Below are positions 4,741 through 11,607 of a stretch of 64,000 nt of DNA, piece by piece. Within the stretch, counting starts at the first letter, position 1. Each line of letters begins with the position of its first letter. The position numbers and the translations under genes are program-made. Source of the DNA: Verrucomicrobiota bacterium (GTDB lineage Bacteria; Verrucomicrobiota; Verrucomicrobiia; Verrucomicrobiales; Akkermansiaceae). The notes beneath the pieces are model-generated. The model searched no databases. It was not told the origin of the DNA and worked only from the letters and a program-made list of their open reading frames with translations. The stretch is from the NCBI GenBank assembly GCA_040384845.1, contig JAZKIL010000014.1:40227-104226 (forward strand), written 5' to 3'.

Positions 4741-5949
4741 ATGATTTTCAACGCTCTACTCATCGCCATTCGAGAGATCCGTCGGAATCTGACGCGTTCG
4801 TTTCTAACAGTGATTGGGATTGTGATCGGTGTTGCTGCGGTCATCACCATGGTCACGCTTGGCCGCGGTGCGACAGCGAGTATCAAGGACCAGATTTCAA
4901 AAATGGGCAGCAATCTGCTCGTGCTCCGCTCCGGCGAGGGTTGGGGTTCCTGGGGAGCACCGCAGTTCACCATGAGTGATGTGGAAGCTATCCGCTATCA
5001 GGTTTCCGGGATCTCTGGCATCGCCCCCTTCATCCGCACCAATGTGCCCGCCGTCTATCAGGAAAACGACCGCGCCACGGATGTTCAAGGCACCACCCCC
5101 AACTATTTCGTTATCGGGAACTGGGATATCGCCCTCGGCCGCTTTTTCACGGAAGAGGAGGTAAAAGAGGCTGCTCCGGTATGCGTTATCGGGGAAACCA
5201 TCCGCAAAGAGCTTTTCGGCGCAGGCGTGGATCCCATCGGCTGTAAAATTCGTGCGAAGTCGATTGCCTTTGAAGTTGTTGGCGTTACCGCTGCCAAGGG
5301 GCAGGGCGGCTTTTCTGATGATCTGGACGACAATATCATCACCCCTTATACCACCGTGCAGCTCCGGCTAACTGGACGCGGCGACGGACGAAACATCAAT
5401 CAAATCATGATCTCAGGCGAGGACGGCTACCCAGGCGCCAATATCGTGGCCGATGTCAGTTCTCTCATGCGTGAGCGCCGTGGTATCCGTGCTAATGAGC
5501 AGGACAACTTTAATGTCTTCGATTCTCAGCAACTCTCGGAGGTCCTCAGCTCCAGCACACAGGTCATGACATCGTTGTTGGCTTGGGTTGCAGGTGTCAG
5601 CCTTCTCGTTGGCGGCATTGGCATCATGAATATCATGCTCGTTTCGGTGACTGAGCGCACCCGCGAAATCGGCATCCGCCTTGCCATCGGGGCACGTGCT
5701 CGGGAGGTGCTACTGCAGTTTCTTGTCGAGGCAGTCACTCTCTCCTGCATCGGCGGACTTTCGGGCATCATCCTCGCTTATGGGGTCTGTACCATGCTCG
5801 TGAAAGAAGTCGGTGCGCCGTTCATCTTCGATGTCAAAATCAATGTCATCGCCTTCGTGTTTTCCGCTGCCATAGGCATTGTCTTCGGCTTCATGCCCGC
5901 CCGCCGAGCCGCCAAACTGGATCCCATCGAAGCACTACGGCACGAGTAA
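4741..5949 (+). CDS. ABC transporter permease, MacB/FtsX family
   Basis: RSFLTVIGIVIGVAAVI, VGGIGIMNIMLVSVTERTREIGIR, PARRAAKLDPIEALRHE. Confidence 0.95.
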   Translation: MIFNALLIAIREIRRNLTRSFLTVIGIVIGVAAVITMVTLGRGATASIKDQISKMGSNLLVLRSGEGWGSWGAPQFTMSDVEAIRYQVSGISGIAPFIRTNVPAVYQENDRATDVQGTTPNYFVIGNWDIALGRFFTEEEVKEAAPVCVIGETIRKELFGAGVDPIGCKIRAKSIAFEVVGVTAAKGQGGFSDDLDDNIITPYTTVQLRLTGRGDGRNINQIMISGEDGYPGANIVADVSSLMRERRGIRANEQDNFNVFDSQQLSEVLSSSTQVMTSLLAWVAGVSLLVGGIGIMNIMLVSVTERTREIGIRLAIGARAREVLLQFLVEAVTLSCIGGLSGIILAYGVCTMLVKEVGAPFIFDVKINVIAFVFSAAIGIVFGFMPARRAAKLDPIEALRHE

Positions 5950-5961
5950 TACAAGGAGGGG

Positions 5962-6038
5962 GCATCATACGCGGCGGGGTGGACGCCCGAATTCTAACTG
6001 GATCGTTACCCACCGTTGGATGGAGCATCTTGTTCGAG
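5962..6038 (-). mobile_element. Truncated/degenerate integron attC site (cassette D)
   Basis: Minus strand CTCGAAC-AAGAT-GCTCCATC-CAACGGTGG...GAATTCGGGCGTCCACCCCGCCG closely resembles the attC at 7440-7528, but L' is degenerate and there is no terminal GTT. Confidence 0.7.
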
Positions 6039-6042
6039 ATTA

Positions 6043-6441
6043 TTAATTTTGTTTCCATGATTGTACAAGAAAATACTGATAGTCTTCTCCTGGTCTTTTA
6101 ATCAAATCTCCCTCGCTCCTTCTTTGGATGGATTAAAACTGACCGTGCAAGTCCAATGTTCCATTTAGTAACTTCGGTGAAGAATCGCTTGCTGGAAATA
6201 CCGCATGAATCATATCCGTCGATTGAGGTGCTCGGAAGGTAAGCTCTCTGCCATTTGGATAGTATCCCTGTGCTCCACAGACGAGGGGATATTGGATTCC
6301 AGCGGATAATGCATCAAAATACACAAGATTCTGTAAAATCACTATTGAGGTGGCTTGGGATTGTGCATCCTCCGTAGATGGTCGGTTATCCGAAGAGCAC
6401 CCGATCAAAAATATTAGCGATAGTAAGCAAATGATTTTCAT
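6043..6441 (-). pseudogene. Cassette D: small lipoprotein-like ORFan with a probable premature TAA at 6133-6135
   Basis: Lipobox LIGC. After TAA the same frame stays open for SIQRRSEGDLIKRPGEDYQYFLVQSWKQN to a stop at 6043-6045, 5 nt before the attC. It could instead be an intact 102-aa gene (6133-6441). Confidence 0.5.
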
Positions 6442-6446
6442 TTATT

Positions 6447-6573
6447 CTCGAACGATGAGCACGTGCACCACTACCAGCGGGAGCGCGCGTCGGTCACGGG
6501 GTTGAGGTTGTAGTCAGGATAAATCATCGAAAGTGAACGGCTGGTAGTGATTGCACGATGCGGCTTGTTAGTC
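6447..6573 (-). mobile_element. Integron attC site (cassette C), 127 bp
   Basis: R'' GACTAAC, spacer AAGCC, L'' GCATCGTG (one extra base), stem ATCACTACCAGC/GCTGGTAGTGGT, L' CACGTGC, spacer TCATC, R' GTTCGAG. Confidence 0.88.
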
Positions 6574-7008
6574 GCGCTTGTCTGGACATAGGAGGTCCCG
6601 AAGCTTCTGCTCGATAAGGACACGATCTGCCGAAAGAGCCATGGATCCGATATACGAATTCCCATCAGAATGGTCTCCATAAACACAGAGCTGGATGCGG
6701 TAGTCTCTAAAGTCGTCTGCCAGCAATGTCCGGAGCCCAGCAAGAAACTCCGGAGTACAATGGTCGGGAGTAACCTCCAAGTGGCGAGTGTGATCAGGCC
6801 ACCAGTCATCACCCACGAACGGTGACTCATCGGACTCAGAGCCGAATTGCTTAGATGCTTCGTTGCGAATCAGGTGGATGAGGAATGAATCCCTTCGCTC
6901 GTAATCGGATTCCTCGCTCTCGGTCGCAAACTCTGCAATGAACGCCTGCTCCCTAAACAACTCATCGAACTGATCAGGCGATACAACTTGTTGGTTCTTG
7001 GGCAGCAT
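6568..7008 (-). CDS. Cassette C: hypothetical acidic protein, 146 aa
   Basis: ORF fills the space between two attC sites; its TAA stop lies inside R'' (GAC-TAA-C). No family recognised. Confidence 0.8.
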   Translation of the reverse strand: MLPKNQQVVSPDQFDELFREQAFIAEFATESEESDYERRDSFLIHLIRNEASKQFGSESDESPFVGDDWWPDHTRHLEVTPDHCTPEFLAGLRTLLADDFRDYRIQLCVYGDHSDGNSYIGSMALSADRVLIEQKLRDLLCPDKRD

Positions 7009-7019
7009 ATGAATTCTTT

Positions 7020-7115
7020 GACTAATGTTAGAAGTGTGGCACGGCGGGAGAAAGGCGTCCAGAGCGAAGCGAACTAGGGACTTTGCCCGCCGTTGCCACC
7101 ACTGACTTGTTCTGC
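7020..7115 (-). mobile_element. Integron attC site (cassette B), 96 bp, core GTT changed to ATT
   Basis: R'' GCAGAAC, AAGTC, L'' AGTGGTGG, stem CAACGGCGGG/CCCGCCGT, L' CCACACT, TCTAAC, R' ATTAGTC. Confidence 0.8.
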
Positions 7116-7433
7116 TTCTTCATTTGGTTCGATTGGTCTTGCCCCAGCATAGAGCACCTCATTCGGATCGATCCCGGATATGAATGTCCTCAGGGCTTCG
7201 ATGTCTTGCTCGCTACCGGTCAACTTGGGATCGAAATAGGTCTCTTGAATTACGAAGATCTCACCCTCGCCACGAAGGAATCTAGATACCTGCAAATCCG
7301 GTGCCCAGAATTCGTCCTCCAGCTTCAACCCTAACGCGCCGATCCCGCGAAACACATTGGAGAAGCAGGCCCCCTTGAATTCGACTTCGCTATCCTTATT
7401 GAAGGCGAAAAAGCGATCTTCCCAAGTCATCAT
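7074..7433 (-). CDS. Cassette B: hypothetical protein, 119 aa; C-terminus reads into the attC (EQVSGGNGGQSP)
   Basis: ORF starts 6 nt after R' of the preceding attC and stops inside its own attC. Confidence 0.78.
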   Translation of the reverse strand: MMTWEDRFFAFNKDSEVEFKGACFSNVFRGIGALGLKLEDEFWAPDLQVSRFLRGEGEIFVIQETYFDPKLTGSEQDIEALRTFISGIDPNEVLYAGARPIEPNEEAEQVSGGNGGQSP

Positions 7434-7439
7434 TTCTTA

Positions 7440-7528
7440 GCAGAACGTCTAGCTCATCCACGGCGGGGATGGAAGCCCGAATTCAAAGAAGGACGTTGTC
7501 CGCCGTTGGATGGAGCGCCTTGTTCGCC
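7440..7528 (-). mobile_element. Integron attC site (cassette A), 89 bp
   Basis: R'' GGCGAAC, AAGGC, L'' GCTCCATC, stem AACGGCGG/CCGCCGT, L' GATGAGC, TAGAC, R' GTTCTGC. Confidence 0.9.
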
Positions 7529-7541
7529 GTTTGTTTGATAT

Positions 7542-7886
7542 TCATTGTGGTGGACTACATTGACCTCCTGACCACGCACCAATTGACTCTCCAATGGCAT
7601 CCTGAAGTGGAGTCTGATTGCACCAGTATTCATCGATTGTTCCAGCTCGGGACCAGGTAGAATGATTAAACCCATCTTCTATATCGTTATACCAGATGAC
7701 CGTCGAGCCATAGATTGCGACGACCCAGAAACCACCACCCATCACGCCGTATGTGTTCTCTTCCCACTTGACGGGATCTATCTTAATTACTTCCCATACA
7801 CGACGCTGCGCCAAGCTCATCTTGTCCCATGCTGAATTGATTATGTCCCAAATCTCGACTTCGGTCGTGGGTTTCCAAGTATTCAT
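7542..7886 (-). CDS. Cassette A: Trp-rich hypothetical protein, 114 aa
   Basis: Preceded by core site GTTAGCC (7892-7898) and followed by an attC. Contains GGGFWVVAIYGSTVIWYNDIEDGFN...IDEYWCNQ. Confidence 0.8.
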   Translation of the reverse strand: MNTWKPTTEVEIWDIINSAWDKMSLAQRRVWEVIKIDPVKWEENTYGVMGGGFWVVAIYGSTVIWYNDIEDGFNHSTWSRAGTIDEYWCNQTPLQDAIGESIGAWSGGQCSPPQ

Positions 7887-8189
7887 TTTCTGGCTAACAG
7901 TATTTATTAGTAGAGTCTCACGTGTGTATATCAGACGCGGTTGACTTCTATATTCAATCGAAATTTATCAATAACGACAAGGAATTTGTTAGGTGGCGTG
8001 GGTACTATCAGAAAATTTTAAGCCGCTCATTTTTCCAAAACTTCCTTTGCTGATAGTCCCCAGTTTTTAGTGGACGGGATGGTAATTTGCGGCCGGTTTA
8101 GGATAGAGATTTATCTTCATGTTACGATGAGCCATGGGTTAGGAGTAATCAGTCCTTTCGATGAAGAACTGAATGGATTGATGGAAAGC

Positions 8190-8335
8190 GTGGCGAGACG
8201 CCACTCACACGGCCTGCGGCAAGATGCCGCAGCTACGGTGTGATAATTCATGAGACGGCGACCGATGATCGCCGCTACGACGGACAAGTTTTTGAATGAA
8301 GAGGAAAGATAAAGGGACAGGAATGTCCCTTCTCC
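8190..8335. repeat. Cluster of four REP-like palindromes
   Basis: GTGGCGAGACGCCAC (8190-8204), CTGCGGCAAGATGCCGCAG+CTAC (8214-8236), CGGCGACCGATGATCGCCG+CTAC (8256-8278), AGGGACAGGAATGTCCCT+TCTCC (about 8313-8335); GTAG/GGAG-type ends on the minus strand. Confidence 0.7.
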
Positions 8336-8339
8336 TCAG

Positions 8340-9032
8340 TTACTTAGCTGCTCCGGGAAGGATTTTTATGTTCCGGAAAAAGCATTCATCGATGTGGTCG
8401 GTGAGCACGATGTGGCCTTCGATCTTTTTTTCGTAGCCGTTGGCTTTTGCAAATTTACTTTTGGCGATAGCGGCCTTGAGCTCTTCGCTTTCTAACTCGT
8501 AAGCGAGGACACGGGCTCCGTTGAGCCAATGCTCGACGCTTTTGCCTTTAACCACGATCTTAGAGCTATTCCATTCGCCGACGGGCTTGAGTGGCTTGTC
8601 ATCGGCGGGAGGAAGGATGTCGTAAAGGCAGGCGGTTTGACGGTGCGGGCCGATCTTGCCGTCCCGGTGACCGGTGTCGTCGAGCATTTGATATTCGGGG
8701 CCAGAGAAATTTCCACGATCCTCAAGCACGAGGTATTTGATTCCATTGTTGCCCTTGGGAGAAATTTTCCATTCCCAAGCGAGGGTGAAGTCTCCGTATT
8801 TTTCCTTGGTGATGATATCTCCGCCGGGAATTATGCTAAGTTTTTTCAGGATGCCGTCCTCGATCTTCCAACAGCGACCGGGCTCCGCATCGGAGCGAAA
8901 CTTACGGAAGTTGGATAGGTCTTTGCCATTGAAGAGGAGCTGCCAGCCGGCGGCTTTTTCCTCTGGGCTGAGGGTGTTGATTTCCTCTGCGAAGATCGGA
9001 AGGGTGATCAGGAAAAAGAAAAAGATTTTCAT
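8340..9032 (-). CDS. DUF1080 (3-keto-disaccharide hydrolase-like) secreted protein
   Basis: GWQLLFNGKDL, GNNGIKY, PEYQMLDD, KPVGEWN, GHIVLTDH motifs; signal peptide. Confidence 0.9.
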   Translation of the reverse strand: MKIFFFFLITLPIFAEEINTLSPEEKAAGWQLLFNGKDLSNFRKFRSDAEPGRCWKIEDGILKKLSIIPGGDIITKEKYGDFTLAWEWKISPKGNNGIKYLVLEDRGNFSGPEYQMLDDTGHRDGKIGPHRQTACLYDILPPADDKPLKPVGEWNSSKIVVKGKSVEHWLNGARVLAYELESEELKAAIAKSKFAKANGYEKKIEGHIVLTDHIDECFFRNIKILPGAAK

Positions 9033-9154: not shown

Positions 9155-10144
9155 ATGCGAGCATTCTTACCATTTACCGTTTTTCTTCTGCTCACAGGCT
9201 GTCAAACGATACACTTCTACACTCAAGGCGTCAGAGGCCAAATCGAGATCCTAGCCAAATCTCAACCCAACGCAAAACTGATCGCTTCTCCTGATACCTC
9301 ATCTTCCCTCAAAGAACGTCTGATCTTAGCCGAAGAACTTTGCTCATTCGCAACCCGTGAACTCGCACTTCCCGGAAATTCCGCCTACCACAAATATGCC
9401 GATCTCGAACGCAACCACGTCGTCTTCGTCCTCCATGCAGCACCCGAATTTTCGATGGAACCAAAAACATGGTTCTACCCCTTCGTCGGCAATCAAGCCT
9501 ACCGCGGCTACTTCAACGAACAGGATGCCGAAACGTATGCCTCCACCCTCCGCGAGAAAGGCTATGAAGTCTATCTCGGCGGGACCGATGCCTACTCCAC
9601 ACTTGGAGTCTTCCACGACCCGCTACTAAACACCTTCATCGACTACCCAGAATTGCACTTCACAGAAACGATTTTTCACGAACTCACTCACATCCGCTAC
9701 TTCGTCAAAGGCGATACAACATTCAACGAATCCCTCGCCAATGTCGTGGCCGAAGAAGGCATGCGCCGCTGGCTGACTTCCAAAGGACGACATGCGGACC
9801 TCGCTAGCTACGAGGAACTTCTCCAACGTCGGCGTGACTTCTACCAACAAATCGCAATCACTCGCTCCGAACTAACCAAATTATATGCATCCGAGATATC
9901 CGAAGAATCCATGCATACCCAGAAACAACAAATCCTCAATCAACTCAAATCCCGCGCTCGTGAACTACAAAAACGCTGGGGAGGAAAGCAGCTCACGGAA
10001 TGGCTCAAGCTTGATCTAACAAACGCTCACATACTTGCCTTATCCGTATACAACCAAGAAATGCCAACTTTCCAAAAACTGCTGGAAGAATCCGGCGGAG
10101 ACTTCGGAACTTTCTTCCAAAAAGTAGAAGCTATGAAGCCCTGA
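9155..10144 (+). CDS. Predicted zinc aminopeptidase lipoprotein (DUF2265-like)
   Basis: Lipobox LTGC, YRGYF, AYSTLG..DPLLNTF, IFHELTH (HExxH), TTFNES. Confidence 0.85.
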   Translation: MRAFLPFTVFLLLTGCQTIHFYTQGVRGQIEILAKSQPNAKLIASPDTSSSLKERLILAEELCSFATRELALPGNSAYHKYADLERNHVVFVLHAAPEFSMEPKTWFYPFVGNQAYRGYFNEQDAETYASTLREKGYEVYLGGTDAYSTLGVFHDPLLNTFIDYPELHFTETIFHELTHIRYFVKGDTTFNESLANVVAEEGMRRWLTSKGRHADLASYEELLQRRRDFYQQIAITRSELTKLYASEISEESMHTQKQQILNQLKSRARELQKRWGGKQLTEWLKLDLTNAHILALSVYNQEMPTFQKLLEESGGDFGTFFQKVEAMKP

Positions 10145-10219
10145 GGAACTTAAAATAAATCCCAGCGTGACGATGTGTGTTGTCTGAAAAATGGTTACCA
10201 CTCATGATGCGTGAATTTT

Positions 10220-10606
10220 TTACCATACGAATTGAAGCTTCCAAACGGAACTACTTCCTAACCCGCTTATCATAGTGAGGCTTTTTTCGTCTGCATCCAA
10301 AACCCCAAACCCAGTCGAATTCATCACCACACATCGGCTCTTTCCAGTTGATAGATTGAAAACGAATAAATCGAAATTTCTGCCCTCGAAAATCTTCAGT
10401 CTCAATTTAGGAATATAAAGCATATCTCCTTTACCAAAAAAGGGGCCACCAAAATTTCCTCTGATTTTTTTCCCATCAATAAACAAGCGCCCAATCCGAG
10501 CCCCTCCCATTGAGGTTTCGCATGTATCTAGCAACTCAACAGTGTGGCCATCGAAGCTTTTGCTCTCGATGAACTCAGTCGGGTTTTCCGAATTTTCGTT
10601 AGACAT
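10220..10606 (-). CDS. Hypothetical AT-rich ORFan
   Basis: Open frame; start moved to MSNENSEN (10606) because the longer start overlaps accA and a REP. Confidence 0.6.
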   Translation of the reverse strand: MSNENSENPTEFIESKSFDGHTVELLDTCETSMGGARIGRLFIDGKKIRGNFGGPFFGKGDMLYIPKLRLKIFEGRNFDLFVFNLSTGKSRCVVMNSTGFGVLDADEKSLTMISGLGSSSVWKLQFVW

Positions 10607-10622
10607 GTTTGCTTCACTTGCG

Positions 10623-10652
10623 AGGTCGCGATTGAAAATCGCCGTTCCTTTC
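10623..10652. repeat. REP-like palindrome, copy 1 (second copy at 35646-35675)
   Basis: AGGTCGCGATTGAAAATCGCCGTTCCTTTC versus AGGTCGCGATTTAAAATCGCGGTTCCTTTC: 28 of 30 identical. Confidence 0.7.
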
Positions 10653-10653
10653 A

Positions 10654-11607
10654 TCACGCCTCATTCCACTCGCCGAACTTACGGAATTTATCGTAGCGTT
10701 CTTGGAGAAGAGTTTCAGTGCTGAGAGAGCAAAGATGATCGAGTTCTTTGGAGACATGTTCGCGGAATGAAAGGGCGGTTGAGGCGTGGTCATGGTGGGC
10801 GCCGCCGAGGGGCTCCGGGATGACTCCGTCGATGAGGTTGAGTTTCATCAGATCTGGCGCGACGAGCTTCATGGCCTCTGCGGCTTCTGGTGCATGTTTG
10901 CGATGCTTCCAAAGAATGGCTGCGCAACCTTCGGGTGAGATCACTGAGTAGTAGGCGTTTTCCATCATCAACACGCGATCCGCGACGCCGATCCCGAGTG
11001 CACCACCAGATCCGCCCTCGCCGATGACCACGGCGATGATGGGAGTTTTGAGCAGCATCATTTCGCGGAGGTTGAAGGCGATGGCCTCTGCGATGTTACG
11101 CTCTTCTGCACCGATTCCAGGGAAGGCTCCCGGGGTGTCGATGAGTGCGATGATGGGCATGGAAAATTTCTCGGCGATTTTCATCAAGCGGAGAGATTTG
11201 CGATAACCTTCCGGATGCGCGGAGCCGAAGTTGCGTTTGAGATTTTCTTTCGTATCGCGGCCTTTTTGGTGGCCCAATACCACGCATTTATGTTCACCCA
11301 ACATGGCGAACCCGCCGGGCATGGATGCGTCATCCCCGATGTGGCGATCGCCATGGAGTTCACTGAAATCTGTGAAGGCGAGTGAAACATAATCGAGCAT
11401 GAAAGGGCGTTGGGTGTGGCGGGCGATCTGCACACGCTGCCAAGGAGTCAGGTTTTGATAAATCGCGGAACGCGTTTCAGCAAGTTTACGCTCCATCGTG
11501 GCAATTTCAGCCGATAAATCGAGATTCTGAGCCGAAGATTTAGAGCGAAGTTTATCGATCTCTTTTTCAAGTTCAGCGGCGGGTTTTTCAAATTCTAGGA
11601 GTTGCAT
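10654..11607 (-). CDS. accA: Acetyl-CoA carboxylase carboxyltransferase subunit alpha
   Basis: LEFEKP, LTPWQRVQIARH, PEGYRK, IDTPGAFPGIGAEER, GEGGSGGALG, YSVISPEGCAAILW. Confidence 0.97.
   Translation of the reverse strand: MQLLEFEKPAAELEKEIDKLRSKSSAQNLDLSAEIATMERKLAETRSAIYQNLTPWQRVQIARHTQRPFMLDYVSLAFTDFSELHGDRHIGDDASMPGGFAMLGEHKCVVLGHQKGRDTKENLKRNFGSAHPEGYRKSLRLMKIAEKFSMPIIALIDTPGAFPGIGAEERNIAEAIAFNLREMMLLKTPIIAVVIGEGGSGGALGIGVADRVLMMENAYYSVISPEGCAAILWKHRKHAPEAAEAMKLVAPDLMKLNLIDGVIPEPLGGAHHDHASTALSFREHVSKELDHLCSLSTETLLQERYDKFRKFGEWNEA

Follow-up and report, generated by a model that had tools for sequence, protein, structure and literature searches.

A chromosomal integron remnant with four cassettes, an attI-like head and an intI stub in a verrucomicrobial genome

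The stretch of DNA analyzed here, a window of 64,000 nucleotides from a contig (JAZKIL010000014.1) of a Verrucomicrobiota bacterium of the Akkermansiaceae, carries a four-cassette integron array on the minus strand at positions 5949-7898, each cassette lacking a promoter and ending in an attC recombination site. The array forms part of the remnant of a sedentary chromosomal integron, a type common in this verrucomicrobial lineage, which consists of an attI-type head, the four cassettes and a stub comprising the last 23 codons of the integron integrase gene intI. We consider it very probable that the region is a former complete integron that has lost its integrase and is now stranded. A preliminary description made from the sequence alone had classified positions 5962-7898 as an attC-site cluster without integron integrases (CALIN), an operational class of IntegronFinder. 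As an array without functional integrase this assignment stands: four attCs lie within 1.6 kb and no recombinase gene is present in the window, the class being defined by at least two clustered attCs with no intI within the clustering distance. The limits proposed for the array were too narrow, for the head and the stub at 7899-8171 fall outside of them.

attC sites and cassette boundaries

The cassette top strand is the minus strand of the window. Cassette A (7446-7897) contains the open reading frame (ORF) casA (7542-7886, 114 amino acids) and site E4, cassette B (7026-7445) casB (7074-7433, 119 amino acids) and site E3, cassette C (6453-7025) casC (6568-7008, 146 amino acids, acidic) and the long-type site E2, and cassette D (5955-6452) the lipoprotein-like casD (6133-6441) together with the terminal site E1. 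All four sites share one layout, in which R'' (NNNNAAC) is followed by a 5-nt spacer starting with AAG, after which come L'', a centre that varies, L', a second spacer and R' (GTTNNNN). Site E4 extends from 7440 to 7528 (R'' GGCGAAC at 7522-7528, R' GTTCTGC at 7440-7446), E3 from 7020 to 7115 (R'' GCAGAAC at 7109-7115, R' ATTAGTC at 7020-7026), E2 from 6447 to 6573 (R'' GACTAAC at 6567-6573, R' GTTCGAG at 6447-6453) and E1 from 5949 to 6038 (R'' CTCGAAC at 6032-6038, degenerate R' CTTGTAT at 5949-5955). The stop codon of macB (5947-5949) reaches with its last base into the R' of E1. With 89-127 nt between the outer ends of R'' and R' the sites lie within the range of attCs (about 57-141 nt), and their ends pair through AAC and GTT as in the attC consensus RYYYAAC/GTTRRRY, the first base of R' deviating in two of the four (E3 and E1). 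L'' is one base longer than L' in every site, the extra base being position 4; in attCs it is such an extrahelical base on the L'' side that determines which strand is recombined. The preliminary description is thus borne out in its account of four minus-strand ORFs, each followed by an attC-shaped element with this extra base; its account of R' applies to the layout as such and fails in detail, because the distal half of E1 (L' and R') is degenerate and R' of E3 starts with A instead of G.

The attC structure is real and far beyond chance. A strict scan combining a regular expression with a stem requirement missed the window's own sites and found three related sites elsewhere, which were used to seed a profile; about 30 further sites in the same genome were recovered by the profile seeded from the window. 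On an alignment of 31 sites of this genome, RNAalifold predicted a helix for the L box in which position 4 of L'' is left unpaired and eight of nine pairs have compensatory changes. The covariation score of the 18-pair structure was 0.454, compared with 0.159 ± 0.016 for shuffled alignments, none of 500 shuffles scoring as high. When the 3' partners were slid by one to three columns, only 30-44% of the cells paired as opposed to 80.7% in register. Mean column identity of the family is 60%, with strong compensatory change, and genome-wide its members fall into two length classes of about 100 and 138 nt (model matches including short flanks).

Two covariance models were applied to the window, with E-values that are rough owing to shortened calibration. 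The first, R1, matched E4 with 93.3, E3 with 83.0, E1 with 59.7 and E2 with 35.7 bits, E2 being matched even though it was not part of the training set. The second, R2, was built exclusively from 16 attCs of the complete integron of a sister species (genome G003, contig C189) and provides a non-circular test. Run over every position of the 64 kb, it returned exactly the four sites (E4 67.1, E2 55.7, E3 64.2 and E1 23.6 bits) and no further match at E ≤ 1. Minimum free energy (MFE) z-scores of the bottom strands, weak evidence when taken singly, were −4.1 for E3, −1.5 for E2, −1.3 for E4 and +0.95 for E1, and the folds of E2, E3 and E4 have bulges on the 3' arm.

The ends of the cassettes follow the rule expected for integron cassettes. 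Core and inverse core are complementary as the preliminary description had stated, and at each of the three internal junctions the match is exact for all four variable bases; the 5' end of cassette A (TTAGCC) is one base off its own R'', and a metagenomic copy of this cassette has the perfect TTCGCC. The rule is not confined to the window. Among 31 pairs of adjacent attCs genome-wide, the four variable bases of R' in the upstream site are the reverse complement of those of R'' in the downstream site in 18, with a mean of 3.16 matches out of four versus 1.94 on permutation (p<5e-5). Within a single attC, by comparison, R' agrees with R'' in only 1.67 of four bases. Read from the sequences, this pattern is the signature of formerly circular cassettes cut at G|TT.

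The same boundaries emerge from environmental copies. Cassette A recurs on metagenome contigs L166 and L167 (93% identity, window 7898-7433), cassette B on L169 (92%, 7446-7031) and cassette C on L168 (91%, 7028-6489), where it is aligned from its 5' boundary and stands behind a different cassette. On these short contigs the three cassettes occur singly, with differing neighbours and attCs of the same family, and homology begins and ends at the core-site GTT, that is at the G|TT crossover. A fixed synteny of the four genes, named beforehand as the finding that would speak against cassettes, is hence not what is found. These G|TT boundaries and the single-cassette copies in other arrays indirectly support the view that the attCs would have been recombined by IntI as folded bottom strands. 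As a separate observation, one cassette on contig C2 of the same assembly (sites at 195072-195171 and 194606-194705) has GAT in place of GTT both in its 5' core (GATAGGC) and in its own R'' (GCCTATC); it seems that recombination moved the variant triplet together with its cassette.

The attI-like head and the intI stub

Directly upstream of cassette A lies a head of 176 nt (7899-8074, minus strand) that is conserved across loci. It contains repeated CTGATA(G)TAC and TATCAG motifs, and its end, ...CTACTAATAAATACT, directly adjoins the G|TT crossover, whose G is position 7898. Within the same genome it is 82% identical to C23:6604-6783 and, over 66 nt, 82% identical to C2:198193-198257, both of which are heads of other arrays. 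In the sister species it is 86% identical to a head on contig C61 of G003, and its core-proximal 49-60 nt match positions 9432-9491 of contig C189. In all five copies from the two species, conservation stops at ...CTACTAATAAATACT|GTT, and the first cassette is a different one at each locus. Contig C189 displays the canonical layout, with array attCs up to 9109, the head at 9432-9491 and a full-length divergent intI at 10047-10979. Because this copy sits between an array and a full-length divergent intI, the head is, by position and conservation, best interpreted as the region of attI in the integron of this lineage, to which binding of IntI is predicted. …GATATAC-N…-CTACTAATAAATACT|GTT may be put forward as a candidate attI consensus.

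About 28 nt beyond the head begins the intI stub (8103-8171, plus strand), which is divergent from the cassettes. Its 23 codons, IEIYLHVTMSHGLGVISPFDEEL, include the motif with the catalytic tyrosine, and 18 of the 23 residues match the C-terminus of a full-length IntI of G003 (TEIYLHVSMSHGLGVSSPLDEEV). At the nucleotide level the stub is 80% identical to the 3' ends of G003 intI genes over 62-66 nt. A complete integron has an intI gene for a tyrosine recombinase with the additional domain specific to IntI; at this locus only the 23-codon C-terminal stub is present. What remains indicates a deletion of almost the entire integrase gene that spared its last 23 codons beside the attI-like head. 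Two statements of the preliminary description need revision on this account. The absence of a tyrosine recombinase from the 64 kb holds for an intact gene and overlooks the stub, and the array is no bare block of cassettes inserted between an efflux operon and a gene encoding a DUF1080 protein, since it has retained the head and the end of intI.

Truncated integrase genes were also encountered in relatives. In G003 a gene (5524-5898 of the extracted locus L162, contig C61) lies between the attI-like head and a truncated intI; its product shares 76% identity with that of C18:47009-47383 of the genome under study, and the gene may be an insertion that disrupted intI. Open frames of 110-175 amino acids that encode only the C-terminus of IntI (about positions 207-315 of the model) occur at G003 C61:16956-17255 and C189:11611-11919 as well as in about ten other relatives, one of them directly behind a full-length intI. 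They may represent a recurrent truncated form of the protein.

A complete integron also has a Pc promoter that drives its cassettes; a consensus promoter scan of the minus strand between 7899 and 8310 found no sigma-70-type site, the consensus being one from which promoters of this phylum may differ. Between the stub and the DUF1080 gene, two short genome-wide repeats lie within 8255-8336. The first (8255-8280, ACGGCGACCGATGATCGCCGCTACGA) has 19 copies in the genome at up to two mismatches, and the second (8311-8332), the palindrome AAAGGGACAGGAATGTCCCTTC, has 13 and also scores as a terminator-like hairpin for the DUF1080 gene. It may be that the platform's far edge is marked by these repeats, which are mentioned as context, their membership in the element being putative.

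Loss of the integrase and alternative origins

The assembly (G000; 3.35 Mb, 27 contigs, 97% complete) was searched for an integrase that could serve the array. A search with the integron integrase model TIGR02249, for which the stub is too short to be detected, yielded two genes only, both scoring far under the cut-off and lacking the insert specific to IntI. The same two genes, and no others, were hit by tblastn with seven IntI proteins of relatives (six congeneric, one from the same order), at 26-33% identity. NCBIfam types them as XerD-like and XerC-like; these nearest tyrosine recombinases are on other contigs. Searches for IntI remnants at the array heads on C2, C23, C27 and C13 found none, and a weak IntI match on C8 was judged spurious. 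The earlier view that the array is stranded is upheld by these results: with no other integron integrase in the assembly, the array alone can no longer excise, capture or reshuffle cassettes. That it is serviced in trans, suggested at the same time, is not supported, head and stub marking a former complete integron.

The array is not the only one of its kind. As the preliminary description had proposed to check, further attCs of the family are present in the genome. They number at least 45 in all (44 from the genome search and E2 from the window search only), spread over about a dozen loci, and are accompanied by three attI-like heads. Arrays without integrase are located at C2:462-5412 and C18:39-5584 (10 attCs each), at C2:193003-197770 (seven attCs, with an attI-like head) and on C27 (16492-29220, two groups of three attCs). 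Single attCs are found on C5, C9, C13, C23 and C25, and there is a weak match on C1; the C23 locus (5465-6783) carries an attI-like head.

Among relatives the attC family is present in 52 of 61 genomes and an IntI above cut-off in 29 of 61, often in more than one copy. The complete genome G002 has a divergent intI adjoined by an array of this family that measures about 46 kb, and the congeners G002, G003 and G015 all have arrays of dozens of cassettes beside intI. A scan with an attC 17-mer and R1 detected the family in metagenome-assembled genomes (MAGs) labelled Akkermansiaceae, Luteolibacter, Haloferula, Terrimicrobiaceae and Chthoniobacterales, a distribution by which the window's organism would most likely belong to the Verrucomicrobiota. 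The genes flanking the array, macB and the DUF1080 gene, are adjacent in none of 40 congeners; no attC occurs downstream of macB in 15 species or beside the DUF1080 gene in five. For the G003 platform that resembles this one most, the flanking DNA maps to another contig of the genome under study.

We infer the following course of events, in its mechanism as well as in the timing and order of the deletion. According to established integron biology and the boundary evidence, the cassettes would have entered one at a time as circles, each through recombination by IntI, at G|TT, between attI and the bottom strand of its folded attC. Recombination between attI and attC at this point would explain why the first six bases of each cassette are complementary to its own R''. 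A later deletion of about 0.9-1.3 kb would then have removed almost all of intI and left the array as a stranded gene store.

Several observations weigh against this reading. Four contig ends lie inside arrays (the starts of C2 and C18 and the ends of C27 and C9), so that an intI in unassembled sequence is possible. Taken alone, the MFE z-scores of E2 and E4 are unremarkable. The head does not resemble the DNA flanking intI in eight other relatives and is shared only by the closest species, G003, whose most similar head, on C61, already adjoins a truncated intI at a different locus. Furthermore, no orthologous empty site was found and the flanks are not syntenic in sister species, for which reason deletion in place is not cleanly separable from translocation of a platform that was already truncated.

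The open contig ends also bear on the possibility that the array is still active and is served in trans by an IntI from unassembled sequence or from incoming mobile DNA. Many members of the genus have IntI, the attCs are still well formed in three of four cases and near-identical cassettes (91-93%) circulate in environmental arrays, all of which would suit such a supply to a draft of 27 contigs. The open ends, however, comprise two upstream and two downstream ends that can join one another without a missing head, so that no array head is unaccounted for, and the 23-codon stub is the sole trace of IntI in the assembled sequence. Together with lesions at recombination-critical positions of E1 and E3 and a nonsense codon in casD, this renders continued activity unlikely.

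Insertion of cassettes at a site that never held a platform, by off-target recombination (attC with attG, or at secondary sites) through an integrase encoded elsewhere, has been shown experimentally and was proposed for small CALINs (bioRxiv 10.1101/2022.09.11.507474); the single attCs on C5, C9, C13, C23 and C25 could have originated in this way. Such an insertion would bring neither head nor stub, whereas the array begins with a head that is also found in the attI region of a complete integron in the sister species and has the 3' end of intI within about 28 nt of it in the expected divergent orientation, and we regard this origin as very unlikely here. That the palindromes are no attCs at all, being repetitive extragenic palindromic (REP)-type repeats or terminators between small unrelated genes, would agree with the weak MFE z-scores of three of the four hairpins and with the existence of other short palindromic repeats in the genome. 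An Rfam scan of 5000-9000 likewise found no relevant family, in a database that has no attC model. This explanation is refuted by covariation that keeps the bulged L box, by the junction rule, by homology breakpoints at G|TT and by the same family of sites forming arrays beside IntI in relatives. Integrase loss from a former complete integron thus remains our preferred interpretation.

Cassette proteins, decay and relation to known integrons

None of the four cassette proteins was matched in Pfam, NCBIfam or PADLOC searches. They are nevertheless not ORFans, as they had been termed at first: casA has more than 384 homologues in Proteobacteria, Planctomycetes and Verrucomicrobia, casB has 17, casC 74, including some from Acidobacteria, and casD 41 (cluster representatives). 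AlphaFold models of the casA and casC products were confident (predicted local distance difference test scores of 85 and 91, respectively) and gave no significant fold match in the PDB. The N-terminus of the casD product reads as a lipoprotein-type signal (LIGC). In Flocculibacter collagenilyticus (CP059888.1; locus L164, 3681-10154) a casA homologue likewise forms a cassette, here within an array of a gamma-proteobacterium, where an unrelated attC family obeys the same junction rule and two IS110-family transposases are present. In a Pyrinomonadaceae MAG (DASVGE010000119.1; locus L036, 5233-6441) a casC homologue lies 4 nt downstream of an ORF of 254 amino acids without Pfam match, at a locus devoid of attCs. 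The two may constitute a two-gene module and provide a hint to the function of casC. A role of the casC product as an immunity protein was not adopted, as its basis consisted only of a weak Imm32 match beside one homologue and of the two-gene arrangement in the acidobacterial MAG.

The ORFs casA, casB and casC are intact and have been under purifying selection, the ratios of nonsynonymous to synonymous substitutions (dN/dS) relative to the metagenome copies being 0.12, 0.24 and 0.21, respectively. At the same time the array has started to decay. Its terminal site E1, with degenerate L' and R' and only 23.6 bits in R2, folds no better than shuffled sequences, and E3 has an A at the crossover base where the metagenome copy on L169 has G. 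In casD an in-frame TAA (6133-6135) cuts short a reading frame whose homologous part extends to 6046; homologues of about 133 amino acids align through the stop into the next 29 codons and end just before R''.

CALINs were defined by Cury et al. (2016), who found half of them in genomes without IntI and 5% beside intI pseudogenes (PMC4889954). Loss of intI is one of three proposed origins (PMC8618304) and insertion at secondary sites, shown experimentally, is another (10.1101/2022.09.11.507474). The array described here resembles the minority class beside an intI pseudogene (PMC4889954) and consists of cassettes without database annotation in a genome without IntI. It differs from the CALINs of that study in that the remnant is only 23 codons long, below the profile coverage of more than 50% required in the pseudogene screen, and in that a recognizable attI-like head has been kept, in a genome with three heads and at least 45 attCs. 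Its homogeneous, lineage-specific attC family, its promoterless single-ORF cassettes, mostly without known function, and the succession of divergent intI, putative attI and array are reminiscent of sedentary chromosomal integrons such as the Vibrio cholerae superintegron with its attCs of the V. cholerae repeat (VCR) type. Unlike these, it has lost intI and comprises four cassettes only, and its attCs occur in two length classes (about 100 and 138 nt) with a consensus of their own, exemplified by the AAC-AAG junction after R''.

Integrons have already been recorded in Verrucomicrobia (PMC4889954, PMC8618304), as have CALINs in genomes without IntI. The case leaves our knowledge of integrons unchanged and would not surprise a specialist. 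What it offers for a poorly studied phylum is reusable material, namely an attC covariance model for Verrucomicrobia that covers two length classes, the candidate attI consensus given above and several cassettes for which movement from array to array can be followed to the base pair.

The locus provides an example of the death of a chromosomal integron, in which the integrase would be lost first, insertion site and cassettes stay in place and point lesions in sites and cargo follow. A further-reaching idea, which we put forward tentatively and consider rather improbable, is that the genome represents an integron system of several platforms in an integrase-null state that arose naturally, three heads and no fewer than 45 cassettes, at about a dozen loci, outlasting the complete loss of intI in a genus most of whose species keep one to four integrases. 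If the cassettes were still transcribed and selected, as hinted at by the dN/dS values of 0.12-0.24, cassette domestication would be under way. Another possibility is that cassettes are still exchanged among the arrays by means of an integrase supplied transiently in trans, which would fit the environmental copies of 91-93% identity.

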